A stretch of 64,000 bases of DNA from Escherichia coli. Its GTDB lineage: Bacteria; Pseudomonadota; Gammaproteobacteria; Enterobacterales; Enterobacteriaceae. Position 1 is the first letter of the stretch. Every line of letters starts with the position of its first letter. Below are positions 2,280-33,208 of the stretch, piece after piece. The position numbers and the translations under genes were made by a program. Where the stretch lies: assembly GCF_003334305.1 (NCBI RefSeq), contig NZ_QOWS01000001.1. One strand, given 5' to 3'. The notes beneath the pieces are model-generated. The model was given only the letters and a program-made list of their open reading frames with translations, had not been told where the DNA came from and searched no databases.

Positions 2280-2306
2280 AAAAAATAAGCCCGTGTAAGG
2301 GAGATT
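2280..2306. repeat. attL core (27 bp, AAAAAATAAGCCCGTGTAAGGGAGATT)
   Basis: Exact direct repeat of 33122..33148, read directly from the sequence; lies immediately beside the integrase gene. Confidence 0.85.
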
Positions 2307-2385
2307 TAGGGTGTCACCAGTAGGGGCTTTCAACGGTACAATGCGGGTTTGAGCGGCATAAATTACCACTGAAAGCCCTTAAACG

Positions 2386-3399
2386 TTACTCTACTGTGGA
2401 CACTGTGTGGACACTCTCGGCCTCAGTACCACCTCTTAGCGGATTAAGAGAAATGGCGTCCTGAAGGTACTCTGGCGCAAAATGAGCGTAAACCATAGTT
2501 TGCTCAATCCGCGTGTGACCTAGTATCCGTTGTAGCGTGATAATACTTCCTCCATTAATCATGAAATGAGTGGCAAAGCTGTGCCTTAGTGCATGTGTGG
2601 CTTGCCCCATTGGCAAATCCGGTTTTATTGCTTTCATTGTTCGTCTGAAGCGAGGGTAATCAGCATCAGGGAATAAAAAACCTCGTTTGTTATCCGCGAT
2701 CATTTTGGCAACAGCCTCTGAGATCGGGACGGTGCGTGGTTTGTTTGTTTTCGTTTTAACAAACGTGACGCGGTTATGGATGATATTTTCTGCTTTCAAA
2801 CGAGCTGCTTCTCCCCAACGTGCTCCTGTACTCAGGCAAAGAATCGCAATCTTTTTATTGTCGCCGTCAAGTGCTGCAAGCAGTAAGGCAATTTCTTCCT
2901 GTGTTAGATAGCCTGTTTCTGGTTTTTCCTCCTTAAGCCTTTTTGTCCCTCTGATAGGGTGCTCACCAAAGAATAACTCCGCTTCAATCAGGGCTGTAAA
3001 CATGCCGCTAATACATGTTAAATCACGATTGATACTCGAAGGTTTAATACCCTGACTTCTTCGGGTGGCGCAGTACTGGCTGATAAGCGATTTCGTAATT
3101 TGAAATGCGCATGGGTCATTCGTTATTTTTGTGAAGATTTCAATTTTTCCAAGATTAGATTTCCCATGCTCTTCGTGTTTACCCTTTAAATCCCACCAGA
3201 TCTGTGTCAGCTCCGACAGACGTCGCTTGTCTGTTGGTTTTGATAGCCATTCTTTATTGTGGTGGTTGTACAACGTGTATTTCTCGAAAGCGACAGCTTC
3301 GCTTTTCTTATCAAACTTCCTACGGATGCGTTTTCCATTACGTCCAGTAGGGCGGATGTCCACTTCATATCGACCATCATCGAGTTTTTTGATTGCCAT
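2386..3399 (-). CDS. int: tyrosine integrase (P2 Int-like, 337 aa)
   Basis: 337 aa as in P2 Int; C-terminal HxxR…Y catalytic region (ATHALRHSFATHF…MVYAHF); adjacent to attL. Confidence 0.9.
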   Translation of the reverse strand: MAIKKLDDGRYEVDIRPTGRNGKRIRRKFDKKSEAVAFEKYTLYNHHNKEWLSKPTDKRRLSELTQIWWDLKGKHEEHGKSNLGKIEIFTKITNDPCAFQITKSLISQYCATRRSQGIKPSSINRDLTCISGMFTALIEAELFFGEHPIRGTKRLKEEKPETGYLTQEEIALLLAALDGDNKKIAILCLSTGARWGEAARLKAENIIHNRVTFVKTKTNKPRTVPISEAVAKMIADNKRGFLFPDADYPRFRRTMKAIKPDLPMGQATHALRHSFATHFMINGGSIITLQRILGHTRIEQTMVYAHFAPEYLQDAISLNPLRGGTEAESVHTVSTVE

Positions 3400-3514
3400 C
3401 AGAAAACCCTCCGAGTGGTGTGTTTTTTTGCGACTACTAATCGCTTTTTTCGTGGTGGCTGAAATTTAGCCACCAATAGTAGGCACTTGTGATGAATATA
3501 TTCACGATGAATTG

Positions 3515-3814
3515 TTAACCAGTCTTTTGACCGGAGTGGGGCGACGTTGTTTCGTTTTGCCCAAAGTGTGCGAGAGCGGGCGCAATTTGCCCGGACTCAG
3601 GAGCGATCTGATTGGTCATGAACCATAAAGTGTATTTGGTGAATTGTGGGGTCTGCAGGATGTTCATCATGACATCTGTTGGAGGTGTTGAACGACCACT
3701 TTCATAGTAACTCAGCGTGCCATACGGAACCCCTGTTAAATCAGCAAGTTGTTGTCTGCTCAAATACTCTGATTTTCGCATTAAGACTATCTTCTCGCTT
3801 ATCGTGTTTGACAT
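3515..3814 (-). CDS. C: immunity repressor C (99 aa)
   Basis: 99 aa with an N-terminal HTH (LSRQQLADLTGVPYGTLSYYE); divergent from cox, as in the P2 lysis-lysogeny switch. Confidence 0.8.
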   Translation of the reverse strand: MSNTISEKIVLMRKSEYLSRQQLADLTGVPYGTLSYYESGRSTPPTDVMMNILQTPQFTKYTLWFMTNQIAPESGQIAPALAHFGQNETTSPHSGQKTG

Positions 3815-3928
3815 GGTGTTTAGATCTCAATAGTATTTAGTTTAGATGTAGATTGTTTAGTGCTTGGATGTGGGCACTAAAAGGCATTATAAGACATTAA
3901 ACGCAATTCATGAGGGCTAGAGGACGAC

Positions 3929-4204
3929 ATGAGCAAGCAAGTAACACTCATGACTGATGCGATTCCTTATCAGGAGTTCGCAAAACTAATAGGAAAATCG
4001 ACAGGAGCGGTTCGTCGGATGATCGATAAAGGAAAGCTGCCTGTAATTGATATGACCGATCCACAATCAGCTTCAGGTCGTGCAGGTGAATATTGGGTAT
4101 ACCTTCCGGCATGGAATAACGGACTAAAACTGGCTTATGAAAGCCGCCCTAAAGAGATTCGTGACGGCTGGTTGATGTGGTTAGGTCTCGGTGAACCACG
4201 TTAA
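3929..4204 (+). CDS. cox: Cox excisionase / early repressor (91 aa)
   Basis: 91 aa, same size as P2 Cox; divergently transcribed from C, first gene of the early operon. Confidence 0.8.
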   Translation: MSKQVTLMTDAIPYQEFAKLIGKSTGAVRRMIDKGKLPVIDMTDPQSASGRAGEYWVYLPAWNNGLKLAYESRPKEIRDGWLMWLGLGEPR

Positions 4205-4385
4205 GGAGAACCGTATGAATGAGCCTCGTTGTATTGCTCAGTTACTGCGTAACGAAAGCCCCAGGGCGATTGACTTCACCATCACCCACGGTAAGGGGCG
4301 TAAGGGAATCATTATCCGCACCAAAAAACAGAGTCCGTTAAAAAAGGCTCTGACCTTTCTGAAAAGCCGGAGGGTATGGAAATGA
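4191..4385 (+). CDS. small early-operon hypothetical protein (P2 orf78 position)
   Basis: 64-aa ORF overlapping the cox stop and ending at the B start; support is positional only. Confidence 0.35.
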   Translation: MNHVKENRMNEPRCIAQLLRNESPRAIDFTITHGKGRKGIIIRTKKQSPLKKALTFLKSRRVWK

Positions 4386-4882
4386 CAGTGATGACGCTCA
4401 ATCTCGTTGAAAAACAGCCAGCAGCTATGCGCCGGATAATTGGTAAGCATCTTGCCGTTCCTCGCTGGCAGGATACATGTGATTATTATAATCAGATGAT
4501 GGAGCGCGAACGGTTAACGGTTTGCTTCCATGCTCAGTTAAAACAGCGTCACGCAACGATGTGTTTTGAAGAAATGAACGACGTCGAACGTGAACGACTG
4601 GTATGTGCAATTGATGAATTGCGTGGTGCATTCTCAAAACGCCGTCAGGTTGGCGCAAGTGAGTATGCATATATTAGTTTTTTAACAGTCAGTCAGCGTC
4701 GTACTTTATTTATGCATGCCGGATTGACTGAAAAAGAATTCAACCAGCCATACTGGCGAATTAATGAAGAGTCATGTTACTGGCGTGATGCTTTATTCCG
4801 TGCATTACGTGAATTATTCAGTCTGTTTGAGTATGCACCGACAATTCTGACGTCGGTAAAACCGGAGCAATATCTGCATTAA
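4376..4882 (+). CDS. B: replication protein B (helicase-loader-like)
   Basis: 168-aa ORF in the P2 gene B position and of the same size class (P2 B ~166 aa). Confidence 0.7.
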   Translation: MEMTVMTLNLVEKQPAAMRRIIGKHLAVPRWQDTCDYYNQMMERERLTVCFHAQLKQRHATMCFEEMNDVERERLVCAIDELRGAFSKRRQVGASEYAYISFLTVSQRRTLFMHAGLTEKEFNQPYWRINEESCYWRDALFRALRELFSLFEYAPTILTSVKPEQYLH

Positions 4883-4912
4883 GTAATTAACCAGAGTTTT
4901 TAACGCACTTAA

Positions 4913-5170
4913 TTGTGCGGGGCTTCTTTTTGCCTGGAGAAAGTTATGCATACAGTTTCTGAAAATCAGTGCGGTATATACGCATTACTGCTGCAACAGG
5001 CCAGAACCGAAGCACAGGCCGACGCTGCGACGCGCTTTTCTTCTCATCTTGATGCCATGATTCGCCACATCACAAAGGCGGAGTTATCCCGCGTGGAGAT
5101 AGTCGAGCTGCTCAGTCAGGAGTCGGAAAAATTTCACAATATCGGATTGTCTCGCGGGGAGGTGCTTTGA
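4913..5170 (+). CDS. early-operon hypothetical protein (P2 orf80 position)
   Basis: 85-aa ORF, translationally coupled to the next gene (overlapping stop/start). Confidence 0.45.
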
Positions 5171-5472
5171 TGTTCTGTTCTCGTGCAGTTGTATTACTGA
5201 ATAACGCCTTAAAAATCGCCGTTATGAAAAATGGCGATTTGTCTCTTATTCAACTTGGTCTTGATAAAGAAAAACGCGAAATAACTGAATCTGTTATCGC
5301 GATTTATCAGAGTGAATTAAACCTCCTGTCTGATGTGGTCAATTTACTTGTTAAACGCGCTGTATTTCACAAGCAAATTTCCTCCGTGGATGAACTGACG
5401 AAATTAACGACAGAAATCGCCAGCTATTGCGCTGATGAATTTAAAAAACTGAACGACAAAAGGAACTGGTAA
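5167..5472 (+). CDS. early-operon hypothetical protein (P2 orf81 position)
   Basis: 101-aa ORF; overlapping stop/start with neighbours on both sides. Confidence 0.5.
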
Positions 5473-5696
5473 TGCCGGACAACGTAGATTTTATTCAGGA
5501 ACAACAGGCTGAATTACTGGAGCGCCAGATTAACGCGGCAAGGGTAAAACATTGCGGTGCTTCTGCGCTGGTTTGCGAAGAGTGTGACGCGCCAATACCT
5601 GCTGCCCGTCGTGCGGCTTACCCGTCAGCCACGCGTTGTGTTTCCTGTCAGTCAGTCTTTGAAGCAAAAAACAAACATTACCGGAGAACGGCATGA
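5472..5696 (+). CDS. TraR/DksA-family C4 zinc-finger protein (P2 orf82 position)
   Basis: 74 aa with a CxxC-N17-CxxC arrangement (CEECDAP…RCVSCQ), the C4-type zinc finger of TraR/DksA-like proteins. Confidence 0.6.
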   Translation: MPDNVDFIQEQQAELLERQINAARVKHCGASALVCEECDAPIPAARRAAYPSATRCVSCQSVFEAKNKHYRRTA

Positions 5697-5968
5697 GTAT
5701 TCGTATTGAAATTGGCGAACGTTATGTCGTTACCAGTGACAGCTTTCAGTTTATTCTCCACGAGAAAAAGAGAGCGGAAAGCGGTAAAAACGCCGGTCAG
5801 GAATGGCTGGCGGTGGTTGGTTATTACCCGAAATTAAGCCAGCTCGTTTCAGGCCTGATGCATCACGATATTCTGACCGGAAGCGCAAAGTCTTTTGCTG
5901 ATTTAAACGTGCAGGTTGAGCAACTCAGCAAGCGTTGTTCAGAGGCTTTTGGCTCATATGGCCGTTAA
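5693..5968 (+). CDS. early-operon hypothetical protein (P2 orf83 position)
   Basis: 91-aa ORF overlapping the start of gene A. Confidence 0.45.
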   Translation: MSIRIEIGERYVVTSDSFQFILHEKKRAESGKNAGQEWLAVVGYYPKLSQLVSGLMHHDILTGSAKSFADLNVQVEQLSKRCSEAFGSYGR

Positions 5969-8243
5969 AGCCTCCGGGCGTTTTGTCCCTCCGTCAGCAT
6001 TTGCCGCAGGCACCGGTAAGATGTTTACCGGTGCTTATGCATGGAACGCGCCACGCGAGGCCGTCGGGCGCGAAAGACCCCTTACACGTGACGAGATGCG
6101 TCAGATGCAAGGTGTTTTATCCACGATTAACCGCCTGCCTTACTTTTTGCGCTCGCTGTTTACTTCACGCTATGACTACATCCGGCGCAATAAAAGCCCG
6201 GTGCACGGGTTTTATTTCCTCACATCCACTTTTCAGCGTCGTTTATGGCCGCGCATTGAGCGTGTGAATCAGCGCCATGAAATGAACACCGACGCGTCGT
6301 TGCTGTTTCTGGCAGAGCGTGACCACTATGCGCGCCTGCCGGGAATGAATGACAAGGAGCTGAAAAAGTTTGCCGCCCGTATCTCATCGCAGCTTTTCAT
6401 GATGTATGAGGAACTCAGCGATGCCTGGGTGGATGCACATGGCGAAAAAGAATCGCTGTTTACGGATGAGGCGCAGGCTCACCTCTATGGTCATGTTGCT
6501 GGCGCTGCACGTGCTTTCAATATTTCCCCGCTTTACTGGAAAAAATACCGTAAAGGACAGATGACCACGAGGCAGGCATATTCTGCCATTGCCCGTCTGT
6601 TTAACGATGAGTGGTGGACTCATCAGCTCAAAGGCCAGCGTATGCGCTGGCATGAGGCGTTACTGATTGCTGTCGGGGAGGTGAATAAAGACCGTTCTCC
6701 TTATGCCAGTAAACATGCCATTCGTGATGTGCGTGCACGCCGCCAGGCAAATCTGGAATTTCTTAAATCGTGTGACCTTGAAAACAGGGAAACCGGCGAG
6801 CGCATCGACCTTATCAGTAAGGTGATGGGCAGTATTTCTAATCCTGAAATTCGCCGGATGGAGCTGATGAACACCATTGCCGGTATTGAGCGTTACGCCG
6901 CCGCAGAGGGTGATGTGGGGATGTTTATCACGCTTACCGCGCCTTCAAAGTATCACCCGACACGTCAGGTCGGAAAAGGCGAAAGTAAAACCGTCCAGCT
7001 AAATCACGGCTGGAACGATGAGGCATTTAATCCAAAGGATGCGCAGCGTTATCTCTGCCATATCTGGAGCCTGATGCGCACGGCATTCAAAGATAATGAT
7101 TTACAGGTCTACGGTTTGCGTGTCGTCGAGCCACACCACGACGGAACGCCGCACTGGCATATGATGCTTTTTTGTAATCCACGCCAGCGTAACCAGATTA
7201 TCGAAATCATGCGTCGCTATGCGCTCAAAGAGGATGGCGACGAAAGAGGAGCCGCGCGAAACCGTTTTCAGGCAAAACACCTTAACCAGGGCGGTGCTGC
7301 GGGGTATATCGCGAAATACATCTCAAAAAACATCGATGGCTATGCACTGGATGGTCAGCTCGATAACGATACCGGCAGACCGCTGAAAGACACTGCTGCG
7401 GCTGTTACCGCATGGGCGTCAACGTGGCGCATCCCACAATTTAAAACGGTTGGTCTGCCGACAATGGGGGCTTACCGTGAACTACGCAAATTGCCTCGCG
7501 GCGTCAGCATTGCTGATGAGTTTGACGAGCGCGTCGAGGCTGCACGCGCCGCCGCAGACAGTGGTGATTTTGCGTTGTATATCAGCGCGCAGGGTGGGGC
7601 AAATGTCCCGCGCGATTGTCAGACTGTCAGGGTCGCCCGTAGTCCGTCGGATGAAGTTAACGAGTACGAGGAAGAAGTCGAGAGAGTGGTCGGCATTTAC
7701 GCGCCGCATCTCGGCGCGCGTCATATTCATATCACCAGAACGACGGACTGGCGCATTGTGCCGAAAGTTCCGGTCGTTGAGCCTCTGACTTTAAAAAGCG
7801 GCATCGCCGCGCCTCGGAGTCCTGTCAATAACTGTGGAAAGCTCACCGGTGGTGATACTTCGTTACCGGCTCCCACACCTTCTGAACACGCCGCAGCAGT
7901 GCTTAATCTGGTTGATGACGGTGTTATCGAATGGAATGACCCGGAGGTCGTGAGGGCGCTCAGGGGCGCATTAAAATACGGGCTGAGAACACCAAATCGT
8001 CAGCAGAGAAACGGAAGCCCGTTAAAACCACATGAAATTGCACCATCGGCCAGACTGACCCGGTCGGAAAGAATGCAAATTACCCGTATCCGCGTTGACC
8101 TTGCTCAGAACGGTATCAGGCCGCAGCGATGGGAGCTTGAGGCGCTGGCGCGTGGCGCGACCGTAAATTATGACGGGAAAAAATTCACGTATCCGGTCGC
8201 TGATGAGTGGCCGGGATTCTCAACAGTAATGGCGCGGATATAA
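5958..8243 (+). CDS. A: replication initiation endonuclease A (rolling-circle initiator)
   Basis: Listed ORF is 775 aa, roughly 760 aa from the internal Met; rolling-circle Rep-type motifs are visible (HWHMMLF HUH-like motif; GAAGYIAKYISK active-site tyrosine region). Exact start uncertain (5916 or 5958). Confidence 0.85.
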   Translation: MAVKASGRFVPPSAFAAGTGKMFTGAYAWNAPREAVGRERPLTRDEMRQMQGVLSTINRLPYFLRSLFTSRYDYIRRNKSPVHGFYFLTSTFQRRLWPRIERVNQRHEMNTDASLLFLAERDHYARLPGMNDKELKKFAARISSQLFMMYEELSDAWVDAHGEKESLFTDEAQAHLYGHVAGAARAFNISPLYWKKYRKGQMTTRQAYSAIARLFNDEWWTHQLKGQRMRWHEALLIAVGEVNKDRSPYASKHAIRDVRARRQANLEFLKSCDLENRETGERIDLISKVMGSISNPEIRRMELMNTIAGIERYAAAEGDVGMFITLTAPSKYHPTRQVGKGESKTVQLNHGWNDEAFNPKDAQRYLCHIWSLMRTAFKDNDLQVYGLRVVEPHHDGTPHWHMMLFCNPRQRNQIIEIMRRYALKEDGDERGAARNRFQAKHLNQGGAAGYIAKYISKNIDGYALDGQLDNDTGRPLKDTAAAVTAWASTWRIPQFKTVGLPTMGAYRELRKLPRGVSIADEFDERVEAARAAADSGDFALYISAQGGANVPRDCQTVRVARSPSDEVNEYEEEVERVVGIYAPHLGARHIHITRTTDWRIVPKVPVVEPLTLKSGIAAPRSPVNNCGKLTGGDTSLPAPTPSEHAAAVLNLVDDGVIEWNDPEVVRALRGALKYGLRTPNRQQRNGSPLKPHEIAPSARLTRSERMQITRIRVDLAQNGIRPQRWELEALARGATVNYDGKKFTYPVADEWPGFSTVMARI

Positions 8244-8599
8244 TGACAAAGATTCACAAAGTAAAGCTGCACGCAAGATATTTCAACCTTGTGCTGGAGG
8301 AAAAAGAAACGCACAGAATTTAGGGGGATAGCCGTTATCATGTGTATGAAGCACTTGAAATGTATCTGCATCACTTGGGAGTGTGTCAACGGGGAATTTC
8401 CATCTATGTGATTTTTTGAGAGCAATGCAGTGAAGATAAAGATACTTATTATAAATCAATGTGATAGATGGTGCCTCGCAAACGTAAATGATAGTTTTGA
8501 AGCTTCAGGGCTGATGTCGTTCATAAGACTATGTTTACGCTATCATTTATGATAAAAATAATTAATTTTTATCATAAAGATTCAACAGAGGATATGTTG

Positions 8600-10105
8600 A
8601 TGAATCAACTAAAATCAATGAATATCAATAAGTTACTTTTGGATGTTGATAACCCTCGTTTCCCGACGTCAGCAGAAAATCAGCGTGATGCTATTGCCAA
8701 GATGCTTGACTTGCAGTACGACCGCATTTATCGCTTGGCTAAAGATATTGCTTCGAAAGGTTTAGATCCGTCTGAAAACATATTAGTTTATCCTAGTGAA
8801 GAGGAATCTGGCTTTTTCGTCGTTGCTGAAGGTAATCGTCGAGTTACAGCCCTTAAACTTTTACACTCTCCTAGACTTGCACCAACAGAAAAAGCACGGA
8901 AAGCTTTTGAAAAACTTAAGATTACTCAGCTTAAAGATATTAATGTTATAGATAACTGCGTTCTTTTTGACGATGATGAATATGAGCATTGGGTCAATTT
9001 AAAGCATACTGGTCAAAATGCTGGAGTTGGAAGAGTTGAATGGACTGCAACAGAAAAAGCACGACATCTGGCTAGGATGGGTAAGCAGTCATTTGGTAAT
9101 CAAATACTTACATTTATAGAGTTCAATACTGATTTATATAAAGAGATAATTGCTAAAAAAAGACTTTTAAAAATCACAAACATCACGCGTCTTTTTGGTG
9201 ATTTAAAGGTGAGGGATTATTTTAATTTAAAAAGCATTAATGGAGTTCTATACTCATATCAGCCTTATGAACGTTTTTGTGCACAATTAAAAAATATTTT
9301 AGATGTAATGATTGAAGAGGATGATAAAGGTAAGGCTTGTTTTACTGTTAATAGGATTCGTAGCCAAGATGACAGGGTTACATTTATTATTGAACAAAAA
9401 ATAAAACCTTCAGAATCTCTTTTAGATAAGCCGTGGAGTTTATTAGAGCCTAAATCTTTTCTTACAGAGAAAAAACATGATTCTATTGACAAAAATGATG
9501 CATCTGTGAGTGTAAAGAAAGCAGGTCTTTCAGAAGGTGATGCCTTAAAGAATACAGGTGTGGATAAACAGGAAGATGATTATTCTAGACATGTAGGCAC
9601 AGAAGAGAGTAAATCTAAAGTTTCGGGTACGGAACAGAATAAAAACAAGGGAAAAACTCCTCCTAAAGTAGATCGTAATGTGTTGGTGCCATCTTATGTG
9701 AAATTTAATTTTAGAGGGCATAAGAAATGCTCTAGAATATTTAATGAGCTTAAGTCGCATCTGACATTTGATAACACCCCTAATGCTATCTCAATATTGT
9801 TGAGAATATTTATAGATCTCTCTGTAAGCACTTTTGTTGAAGAAAACAAGTTACAATTTAAGGAACCACATAGAACTCCAGGGCTTCATGATAAGGTTAA
9901 AATGTGTGCTAATTTCCTTCGGGAAAATAAAAAGATGACGGGGAGTCAATGTACGGCTGTAATAACTTTCTCGAGCCAAATAACTAAACATGATGGTTCA
10001 TTGCAGCAGTATGTACATAACCCACACTTAATTCCCTCAAAAGAGGCTGTCAACACTGAGTGGGATAACTTTGAGTTGTTATTAAGCCTTATTTGGAGTG
10101 AGTGA
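8600..10105 (+). CDS. ParB/Srx-fold N-terminal domain protein (~501 aa) with K/E-rich linker and uncharacterised C-terminal domain; cargo gene
   Basis: N-terminus INKLLLDVDNPRF followed by FVVAEGNRRVTALKLL, which match ParB N-domain box I and the GxRR arginine patch. Start chosen at MNQLK because AGAGGA lies 7 nt upstream. Visibly AT-rich with atypical codon usage; occupies the P2 tin/old slot. Confidence 0.7.
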   Translation: MNQLKSMNINKLLLDVDNPRFPTSAENQRDAIAKMLDLQYDRIYRLAKDIASKGLDPSENILVYPSEEESGFFVVAEGNRRVTALKLLHSPRLAPTEKARKAFEKLKITQLKDINVIDNCVLFDDDEYEHWVNLKHTGQNAGVGRVEWTATEKARHLARMGKQSFGNQILTFIEFNTDLYKEIIAKKRLLKITNITRLFGDLKVRDYFNLKSINGVLYSYQPYERFCAQLKNILDVMIEEDDKGKACFTVNRIRSQDDRVTFIIEQKIKPSESLLDKPWSLLEPKSFLTEKKHDSIDKNDASVSVKKAGLSEGDALKNTGVDKQEDDYSRHVGTEESKSKVSGTEQNKNKGKTPPKVDRNVLVPSYVKFNFRGHKKCSRIFNELKSHLTFDNTPNAISILLRIFIDLSVSTFVEENKLQFKEPHRTPGLHDKVKMCANFLRENKKMTGSQCTAVITFSSQITKHDGSLQQYVHNPHLIPSKEAVNTEWDNFELLLSLIWSE

Positions 10106-10174
10106 GATTTGTCTACATCTGGACATGGATGTCCAGAAACTGATAAACTACAAAATCAGGAATGAGAGGGATTT

Positions 10175-11059
10175 ATGAAATTTTATACTCCATTAAGATA
10201 CCCCGGCGGGAAAGGTAAGTTATCTTACTTTTTAAAAGATGTTATTGAAAAAAACTCGTTGAATGATGGAGCATATGCAGAACCTTACGCTGGTGGTGCA
10301 GGGGTGGCTTTAGAATTATTATTGGAAGAGTATGTCCGTAAAATCTATATAAATGATGCAGATTTTGCTGTTTATTCTTTTTGGTCATCTGTTGTTAGTG
10401 ATACTGATGAGCTTTGCCGACTTATTAGCCGAGCAAAGATAGATATGGATGAATGGTCTTTTCATCGCTATGTTATTTCGAATCCTTCTGAGTTTACTAA
10501 GCTTGAGGTTGGCTTTGCTGCGTTTTTCTTAAATAGAACAAATCGTTCAGGTATTCTCAAGGCGGGGGTTATAGGCGGGAAATCACAAAATGGAAAATGG
10601 AAAATGGATGTTCGCTTTAACAGGGCGGATTTAATTTCAAGAATTGAGAAGATAGCAAATTATAATCAAAGAATAGTAGTAACTAATCTGGATGCTTTGG
10701 ATTTTCTTGATGTCTTGAATTTTATGGATAATATGGGAAAGGTGGATAAAAATAAAATTCTTTTGTATTTGGATCCTCCTTACTATATTAAAGGGCAAGG
10801 GCTTTACAGGAATTTTTATGAGCATGATGATCATGTATTGGTTATGAAGAAACTCACAGAAATTAATTTCCCAAATTGGCTTGTTTCTTATGATAACGCT
10901 AAGGAAATTAAAGATATTTATAATGGATTTCCGCAAGTTGAGTATTCATTGCAATATACAGCGCATCTCAAAAAATCTGGAGAGGAAGTGATGATTTTTT
11001 CTCCTGAAATAATTATTCCTAATACCCTGAAAGGGGGCTCAATGCCAACTTGCGCCTGA
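10175..11059 (+). CDS. Dam-family (D12 class, alpha-type) N6-adenine DNA methyltransferase; cargo gene
   Basis: Motif I EPYAGGAGV (FxGxG AdoMet-binding) near the N-terminus and catalytic motif IV DPPY (YLDPPYY) about 160 aa later, the alpha-class order seen in Dam. AT-rich, 70 bp downstream of the ParB-like gene on the same strand. Confidence 0.8.
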   Translation: MKFYTPLRYPGGKGKLSYFLKDVIEKNSLNDGAYAEPYAGGAGVALELLLEEYVRKIYINDADFAVYSFWSSVVSDTDELCRLISRAKIDMDEWSFHRYVISNPSEFTKLEVGFAAFFLNRTNRSGILKAGVIGGKSQNGKWKMDVRFNRADLISRIEKIANYNQRIVVTNLDALDFLDVLNFMDNMGKVDKNKILLYLDPPYYIKGQGLYRNFYEHDDHVLVMKKLTEINFPNWLVSYDNAKEIKDIYNGFPQVEYSLQYTAHLKKSGEEVMIFSPEIIIPNTLKGGSMPTCA

Positions 11060-11207
11060 TTTTACTTATTTTTTGTCAGTAAGTAATTAGTTTGGTGCAT
11101 TTATTTGCATTCATTTTTAAATGCCAGTTCTGGTATCTAACATCAGTGCTGGCGCATTCTAACCATTACTGCTGCACTGCATTTAAAGCCCTGCATGAAG
11201 CGGGCGG

Positions 11208-11226
11208 GCGAGGCGGGGAAAGCACT
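11208..11226. other. cos cohesive-end site (GGCGAGGCGGGGAAAGCAC)
   Basis: 19-nt sequence matching my recollection of the P2 cohesive end, in the expected place between the A-side cargo and portal gene Q. Confidence 0.6.
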
Positions 11227-11393
11227 GCGCGCTGACGGTGGTGCTGATTGTATTTTTTCAGCGTCTCAGCGCGTCGTGACGGCGCTTAGTCTGCCCGTTG
11301 AGGCGTTGTGTGTCTGCGGGGTGTTTTGTGCGGTGGTGAGCGTGTGAGGGCGTGATGACTGGGTGTAAAAAAGCCGCCCGCAGGCGGCGATGT

Positions 11394-33121: not shown

Positions 33122-33148
33122 AAAAAATAAGCCCGTGTAAGGGAGATT
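33122..33148. repeat. attR core (27 bp), coincident with the 3' end of cyaR
   Basis: Exact direct repeat of 2280..2306. Confidence 0.85.
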
Positions 33149-33208
33149 ACACAGGCTAAGGAGGTGGTTCCTGGTACAGCTAGCATTTTATGGGTTATGT
33201 TTTTCAGC
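33122..33208 (-). ncRNA. cyaR: CyaR (RyeE) Hfq-dependent sRNA, 87 nt
   Basis: The reverse complement reads GCTGAAAAACATAACCCATAAAATGCTAGCTGTACCAGGAACCACCTCCTTAGCCTGTGTAATCTCCCTTACACGGGCTTATTTTTT, which matches the CyaR sequence as I recall it, including the terminator hairpin and U-tail; lies between ogr and yegQ. Confidence 0.8.

Follow-up and report, generated by a model that had tools for sequence, protein, structure and literature searches.

At 5472..5696 on the + strand of the window (the whole 64,000-nt stretch of Escherichia coli DNA that was analysed, from contig NZ_QOWS01000001.1), the ORF list has an ATG-initiated reading frame of 74 codons followed by TGA. This frame is orf82 of bacteriophage P2, and it sits in the early operon of a P2 prophage. 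The prophage is ~30.9 kb in length, bounded by attL and attR beside yegR/yegS. Its left flank is E. coli yegS/yegR, and the host flank was found in 5425/5426 complete E. coli genomes. The prophage landmarks and early genes are:

2280..2307, + strand: attL, with the exact 28-bp P2 attP core (sequence comparison)
3515..3814, - strand: immunity repressor C (ORF list; identical to P2 C, 25591-25890)
3808..3836, + strand: early promoter Pe, TTGACA-17-TAGTAT (promoter scan; the P2 Pe has its -35 at 25884-25889 and its -10 at 25907-25912)
3929..4882, + strand: cox (3929-4204), orf78 (4215-4385) and B (4382-4882) (ORFs, P2 annotation, identical DNA)
4904..4931, + strand: putative rho-independent terminator between B and orf80 (hairpin 4904-4919; P2 putative terminator 26980-27007)
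4946-5170, + strand: orf80, DUF2732 (ORF list, P2 annotation)
5167..5472, + strand: orf81 (ORF list, P2 annotation)
5472..5696, + strand: orf82 coding sequence (ORF list; 100% DNA and protein identity to P2 27548-27772; PF01258, TIGR02419, PHROG 54)
5693-5968, + strand: orf83 (ORF list, P2 annotation)
5958-8243, + strand: replication endonuclease gene A (ORF list, P2 annotation)
33122..33149, + strand: attR, the P2 att core with one mismatch (sequence comparison)

In a megablast search of the phage collection, 5167-5968 was 100% identical to P2 (AF063097 / NC_001895) 27243-28044, the window-to-P2 offset being 22076; the P2 features under this match are orf80, orf81, orf82, orf83 and A. The Orf82 protein is likewise 100% identical to P2 Orf82 (NP_046793.1) by tblastn, and direct base comparison gave zero mismatches to P2 across 3400-6656, a segment that covers C, Pe/Pc, cox, orf78, B and orf80-83. 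Protein, DNA, operon and position are thus those of P2 orf82, within an early region that has no difference of any kind; the prophage departs from the P2 type strain only elsewhere, within gene A and a little past it (6657-8320) and in the cargo after A. RefSeq names the P2 gene 'DksA-like zinc-finger protein', with a putative C4-type zinc finger domain, while PGAP labels near-identical E. coli chromosomal copies either 'TraR/DksA family transcriptional regulator' or 'TraR/DksA C4-type zinc finger protein'. The 225-base orf82 occurs in 1603/5426 complete E. coli genomes (~30%). The gene is therefore identical to one already known, annotated in RefSeq and biochemically characterised.

The remainder of the window contains several features that are separate from the early operon. 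At 6657-8320 there are 49 mismatches to P2, mostly past 7886 (the 3' portion of A and a little further), until homology is lost; judged from the bases, this onset looks like a recombination junction next to a variable cargo hotspot. After gene A (8244-11393), in place of the orf91/tin/old cargo of P2, the prophage has a PD-Lambda-5 anti-phage system of two genes, identified by profile matches:

8531..10105, + strand: 524-aa protein, PADLOC PD-Lambda-5_A (5.9e-168)
10175..11059, + strand: 294-aa protein, PD-Lambda-5_B (2.6e-121), type II Dam-like methyltransferase

By megablast, no record in the phage collection carries this insert, and only its cos-proximal end matches. Between the tail genes S and V, 20646..21431 lies on the opposite strand (-) and encodes a 261-aa protein that corresponds to P2 Orf30, which is nonessential (PHROG 2407, 3.6e-148; no PADLOC match). 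The adjoining 128-aa ORF at 21431..21817 (-) overlaps the start region of gene V and had no family match; it is probably not a gene. To the right of the prophage lies 39618..45818 (-), where a pair of large ORFs (1025 and 1040 aa) has ORFs of 464-471 aa on either side. By its place beside yegR on the K-12 map, this segment with its neighbours would be the mdtABCD/baeSR region.

The first-pass annotation had placed a TraR/DksA-type zinc-finger protein at the P2 orf82 position of a prophage early operon. Both parts of this placement were correct, with the refinement that the ORF is P2 orf82 itself. It lies 3' of Pe (3808-3836), in an operon with the order cox-orf78-B-orf80-orf81-orf82-orf83-A, as in the P2 annotation, so that orf82 is found between the replication genes B and A. 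Since C shuts Pe, no expression of orf82 is expected in the lysogen, and the gene should be turned on by infection or derepression. Transcripts reaching it must read through the putative terminator between B and orf80, and the presence of that terminator 5' of orf80 means that expression may be low.

A role in the lysogen, i.e. lysogenic conversion through continuous adjustment of host transcription from the prophage, is very improbable. An effect on the host would matter if the gene were expressed, given that ~30% of complete E. coli genomes carry it, and there is a promoter-like site inside gene B (4465-4492) that could in principle serve this purpose. However, the scan for an internal promoter that could drive orf82 in the lysogen gave 6 promoter-like sites where 6.1 were expected from shuffled sequences, so the site in B carries no weight. 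The Pe operon is switched off by the immunity repressor, and overexpression of Orf82 is reported to halt cell growth (Liu, Saha and Haggård-Ljungquist 1993, as cited in PMC9239242), which argues against constitutive expression.

Within and around the reading frame, the following elements can be recognized:

5460..5474, + strand: Shine-Dalgarno-like AAGGA (5460-5464), 7 nt 5' of the orf82 ATG (read from sequence)
5478..5495, + strand: codons of the N-terminal segment D3-N-V-D6-F-I8, of which D3 and D6 align with TraR D3 and D6 (read from sequence)
5574..5648, + strand: C4 zinc-finger globular domain, C35-x2-C38-x17-C56-x2-C59 (sequence; Pfam match to residues 34-64)
5607-5612, + strand: codons of R46 and R47, counterparts of TraR R48 and R49 (sequence alignment)
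5693..5696, + strand: ATGA overlap of the orf83 start (5693-5695) with the orf82 stop (5694-5696), as in the P2 annotation

At the 5' end, the orf81 stop codon (TAA, 5470-5472) and the orf82 start codon (ATG, 5472-5474) overlap as TAATG. These overlaps indicate that orf82 is probably translationally coupled to both orf81 and orf83. The two flanking genes raise a separate point of annotation. PGAP calls Orf81 and Orf83 both 'DUF5405 family protein', as if they were paralogues, but BLASTP gave no alignment between them and they fall into different PHROGs (265 and 154), so the shared name looks doubtful as far as sequence comparison goes. The two PHROGs are both labelled 'replication initiation protein'.

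Read from the DNA, the four finger cysteines of Orf82 are encoded at 5574-5576 (C35), 5583-5585 (C38), 5637-5639 (C56) and 5646-5648 (C59), giving CEEC, 17 residues and CVSC (CxxC-N17-CxxC). A fifth cysteine, C28, lies outside the finger and is not conserved among homologues. Three independent profile libraries place the protein in the TraR/DksA family. Pfam zf-dskA_traR (PF01258) matches residues 34-64 with an E-value of 4.6e-11. The NCBIfam model TIGR02419, 'phage/conjugal plasmid C-4 type zinc finger protein, TraR family', is matched over profile positions 1-64 of 64 with 78.3 bits against a curated cut-off of 59.7 (E 4.7e-22), and PHROG 54, 'DksA-like zinc-finger protein', is matched over the full length of Orf82 (E 1.5e-32). 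Among relatives with solved structures, the best sequence matches were TraR in complex with E. coli RNA polymerase (RNAP) (5w1s_M, 8.9e-10; 6n57_M, 1.6e-09), followed by YbiI (2kgo, 1.4e-07).

The more specific equivalog models did not accept Orf82. The scores with the DksA equivalogs were 20.0 bits for TIGR02420 (cut-off 115.5), 27.7 for NF033459 (cut-off 105) and 15.1 for NF008045 (cut-off 289), and the coiled coil of DksA has no room in 74 aa. With the F TraR equivalog NF010268 (43.2 bits, cut-off 108) the protein rates as a family member and not as an F TraR orthologue, and with the YbiI equivalog NF008243 (47.1 bits, cut-off 96) it is not a YbiI equivalog. With all of these scores under the curated cut-offs, Orf82 fits the broader TraR subfamily only.

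Pairwise alignment with F TraR gave 39% identity over the full length. The F TraR query in this alignment was confirmed by the PDB alignment from residue 14 onward, and its first 13 residues are assumed. Residues conserved between the two proteins are D3, D6, the four cysteines, P41-I42-P43, R46-R47 (TraR R48/R49) and K68-H69-Y70. D3, the four cysteines and the arginine pair are also invariant in a 13-sequence alignment of homologues down to 39-55% identity, and D6 too is conserved among homologues. The N-terminal motif of Orf82 is DxxDxI, with D3 and D6 present but without the A8 of DxxDxA; in a 17-sequence alignment, position 8 is I, E or A among homologues.

An AlphaFold2 model of Orf82 was of moderate confidence (mean pLDDT 74.5, pTM 0.40), with helices at 3-25, 44-49 and 57-72. 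The confidence was only moderate because the structure alignment was shallow (13 sequences), which in turn reflects the word-indexed protein search, where mostly near-identical E. coli and Salmonella copies and one Serratia group were retrieved. As modelled, the protein would have the TraR layout, i.e. an N-terminal helix, a zinc knuckle domain and a C-terminal helix, with no coiled coil. The model contains no zinc, and the cysteine spacing given above was read from the sequence. In a Foldseek search against the PDB, the top match was TraR 6n57_M (E 2.9e-4, probability 1.00, TM 0.50), at an rmsd of ~13 Å that is high because the long helices are oriented differently in the free-standing model; TraR 5w1s_M, YbiI, chlamydial Dks and DksA followed in this order. 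Every detail of the first-pass description of a 74-aa ORF with CEEC-N17-CVSC agrees with the ORF list and the DNA, and its assignment to the TraR/DksA family holds on profiles, on the sequence match to solved TraR and on fold. The HMM search that it proposed is the Pfam match given above, and the cysteine spacing is compatible with a C4 finger.

The activity of the protein is known from published work. Gopalkrishnan et al. 2022 (mBio 13:e00952-22, PMC9239242) tested P2 Orf82 directly as one of five TraR homologues, and the authors also noted the location of its gene in the Pe operon. IPTG-induced Orf82 restored the growth of an E. coli dksA null mutant on minimal medium, and in competition for RNAP, purified Orf82 halved the binding of labelled DksA at 0.65-1 µM, similar to TraR (PMC9239242). 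The displacement of labelled DksA implies that both proteins use one binding site. Without ppGpp, the IC50 on rrnB P1 was 250 nM for Orf82 and ~50 nM for TraR and phage lambda Orf73, while transcription from thrABC and argI rose ~2-4 fold with Orf82, as with the other homologues except lambda Orf73 (PMC9239242). The authors put the lower potency down partly to the missing A8 of DxxDxA, as a possible cause (PMC9239242). DksA-site RNAP binding, rrnB P1 inhibition, thrABC/argI activation and dksA complementation have thus all been demonstrated for a protein identical to the one encoded in the window (PMC9239242). The first-pass annotation had suggested that a prophage-encoded protein of this type could bind the RNAP secondary channel and modulate host transcription, and had proposed assaying rRNA promoter activity. 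The competition with DksA for RNAP, the inhibition of rrnB P1, the activation of amino-acid promoters and the dksA complementation bear out both suggestions, and the rRNA promoter assay had already been published with a positive result for the purified protein (PMC9239242), a publication that the annotation missed.

These results leave next to no chance that Orf82 is a generic zinc-ribbon protein without action on RNAP. It is true that a C4 finger by itself does not predict DksA-like function (PMC9239242), and that the DxxDxA motif is imperfect in Orf82. However, Orf82 has D3, D6, the arginine pair and the C-terminal helix, and the published RNAP competition and transcription assays on this exact protein refute such a reading (PMC9239242).

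We conclude that orf82 of this P2 prophage very probably encodes a TraR-type, RNAP-binding regulator that acts independently of ppGpp and is likely to divert resources to the phage. Made only after infection or derepression, along with the replication genes B and A, Orf82 would bind RNAP without binding DNA. The exact contacts we infer by analogy with TraR-RNAP structures, where the N-terminal DxxDxA-type motif of TraR reaches the active-site region and R48/R49 touch the secondary-channel rim helices and beta' Si3 (PMC9239242). By this homology, the N-terminal helix of Orf82 would enter the secondary channel and bring D3 and D6 close to the active site. R46/R47, in the C4 zinc domain at the channel entrance, would contact the rim helices and beta' Si3, while the C-terminal helix would touch the beta lobe and beta Si1. 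The bound protein, with ppGpp absent, would then inhibit kinetically unstable promoters, e.g. rrnB P1, and activate promoters of amino-acid biosynthesis. The likely purpose, on the analogy of lambda Orf73, would be to withdraw RNAP and resources from ribosome synthesis in favour of phage production, and a benefit to P2 yield would be expected on the same analogy. Since Orf82 lacks A8 and is ~5-fold less potent than TraR on rrnB P1, its main target may lie elsewhere than at rRNA promoters. In the literature searched, we found no phenotype of a P2 orf82 mutant (e.g. burst size or lysogeny frequency), and only the in vitro and plasmid study links Orf82 with TraR (PMC9239242).

Comparison with known relatives helps to place Orf82 in the family. 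It shares with F-plasmid TraR (PDB 5W1S, 6N57) the length class (73 aa for TraR, 74 aa for Orf82), CxxC-N17-CxxC, D3/D6, the arginine pair and the succession of helix, zinc domain and helix, and both are secondary-channel binders independent of ppGpp. The two differ at position 8, where Orf82 has I8 for A8, and in potency, Orf82 being ~5-fold weaker on rrnB P1 at similar RNAP binding; moreover, the TraR gene belongs to a conjugative transfer operon, whereas orf82 is in a phage early operon. Lambda Orf73 is likewise a phage TraR homologue of early lytic expression, which inhibits rrnB P1 and rpsT P2 via the D3/D6 motif. In contrast to Orf82, which activates thrABC and argI ~2-4 fold, Orf73 gives little or no activation of thrABC, argI and rpoH P3, and effects on host growth and burst size have been shown for Orf73 only. 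With E. coli DksA, Orf82 has in common the site on RNAP and the direction of its promoter effects, and it can substitute for DksA on minimal medium. However, DksA, a protein of 151 aa with a coiled coil, is fully active only with ppGpp, whereas Orf82 is half as long and acts alone, at lower concentrations than DksA (PMC9239242). Orf82 therefore works like DksA plus ppGpp, yet it is no DksA. E. coli YbiI (PDB 2KGO) is of the same zinc-finger family (E 1.4e-07) and was the third-best fold match, but it is chromosomal and has 88 aa (108 aa in the deposited PDB chain).

Relatives were also found in other genera of the Peduoviridae. Salmonella phage BIS20 (Eganvirus, 186-like) and Klebsiella phage ST15-OXA48phi14.1 (Gegavirus) encode TraR-family proteins with 49% and 47% identity to Orf82, respectively, from genes directly 5' of replication gene A, as in P2. 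In both phages a small upstream gene overlaps the start of the TraR-family gene (2768-3222 of the BIS20 segment and 2768-3228 of the ST15-OXA48phi14.1 segment that were compared). This upstream gene is DUF2732 (Orf80-like) in the Klebsiella phage and is annotated 'hypothetical protein' in BIS20; in P2, the DUF2732 gene and orf82 are separated by orf81. On gene order, the conserved pairing of DUF2732 and TraR genes could hint at a functional link.

A case in which such a link has been reported is Vibrio phage VP882, whose TraR (gp61) has 36% identity to Orf82 and is encoded in a repressor-controlled early operon, where its gene overlaps the upstream neighbour. According to a July 2026 preprint (bioRxiv 10.64898/2026.07.27.740977), VP882 TraR acts in a complex with QisA (gp60), which is encoded by that overlapping upstream gene, and QtiQ inhibits TraR; growth arrest is much stronger with TraR and QisA together. 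By analogy, Orf82 might act in a complex with a small protein encoded by a neighbouring gene (Orf80/DUF2732, Orf81 or Orf83) and be only partly active by itself. Stop and start codons overlap across P2 orf81/orf82/orf83, BIS20 and the Gegavirus have a small gene (DUF2732, Orf80-like) directly 5' of the TraR gene and overlapping it, and Orf82 by itself is weaker than TraR. We consider this quite unlikely nonetheless. Such codon overlaps are normal in compact phage operons, and Orf82 alone matches TraR in RNAP binding and complements the dksA null. BLASTP of QisA against P2 Orf81 and Orf83 returned E-values of 7 or more, i.e. no detectable similarity and no sequence support for a QisA-like partner, and no such protein was detected beside orf82. 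No partner or inhibitor has been reported for Orf82, unlike QisA and QtiQ of VP882.

Another possible reading is that the main job of Orf82 is the support of phage DNA replication and not the reprogramming of host promoters. Binding to RNAP would then cut transcription-replication conflicts, or alter transcription near the ori inside gene A, and so help the gpA/gpB-dependent rolling-circle replication encoded by the neighbouring genes. The gene is placed amid replication genes and directly 5' of the endonuclease gene in P2, Eganvirus BIS20 and the Gegavirus, PHROGs give both Orf81 and Orf83 a name from replication initiation, and DksA has been reported to promote DNA replication (bioRxiv 10.64898/2026.07.27.740977). 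However, the PHROG names are putative annotations, and the measured activities of Orf82 concern transcription initiation at host promoters. RNAP secondary-channel binding would still be required as well, so that the purpose changes and not the mechanism. We regard a primary role in replication as rather unlikely. It is a decidedly speculative extension of both ideas, drawn from the VP882 analogy, that Orf82 in a complex with Orf80, Orf81 or Orf83 might coordinate host transcription with gpA-dependent replication and would not be a simple rRNA shut-off factor. The DUF2732-TraR-gpA gene order conserved among Peduoviridae genera would be compatible with this.

The preferred reading is still that of a TraR-type regulator acting on host promoters. 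orf82 is among the commonest prophage genes of E. coli, and its occurrence at this locus carries little weight beyond correct annotation: it should be recorded as the gene for an experimentally characterised, ppGpp-independent mimic of DksA/ppGpp.
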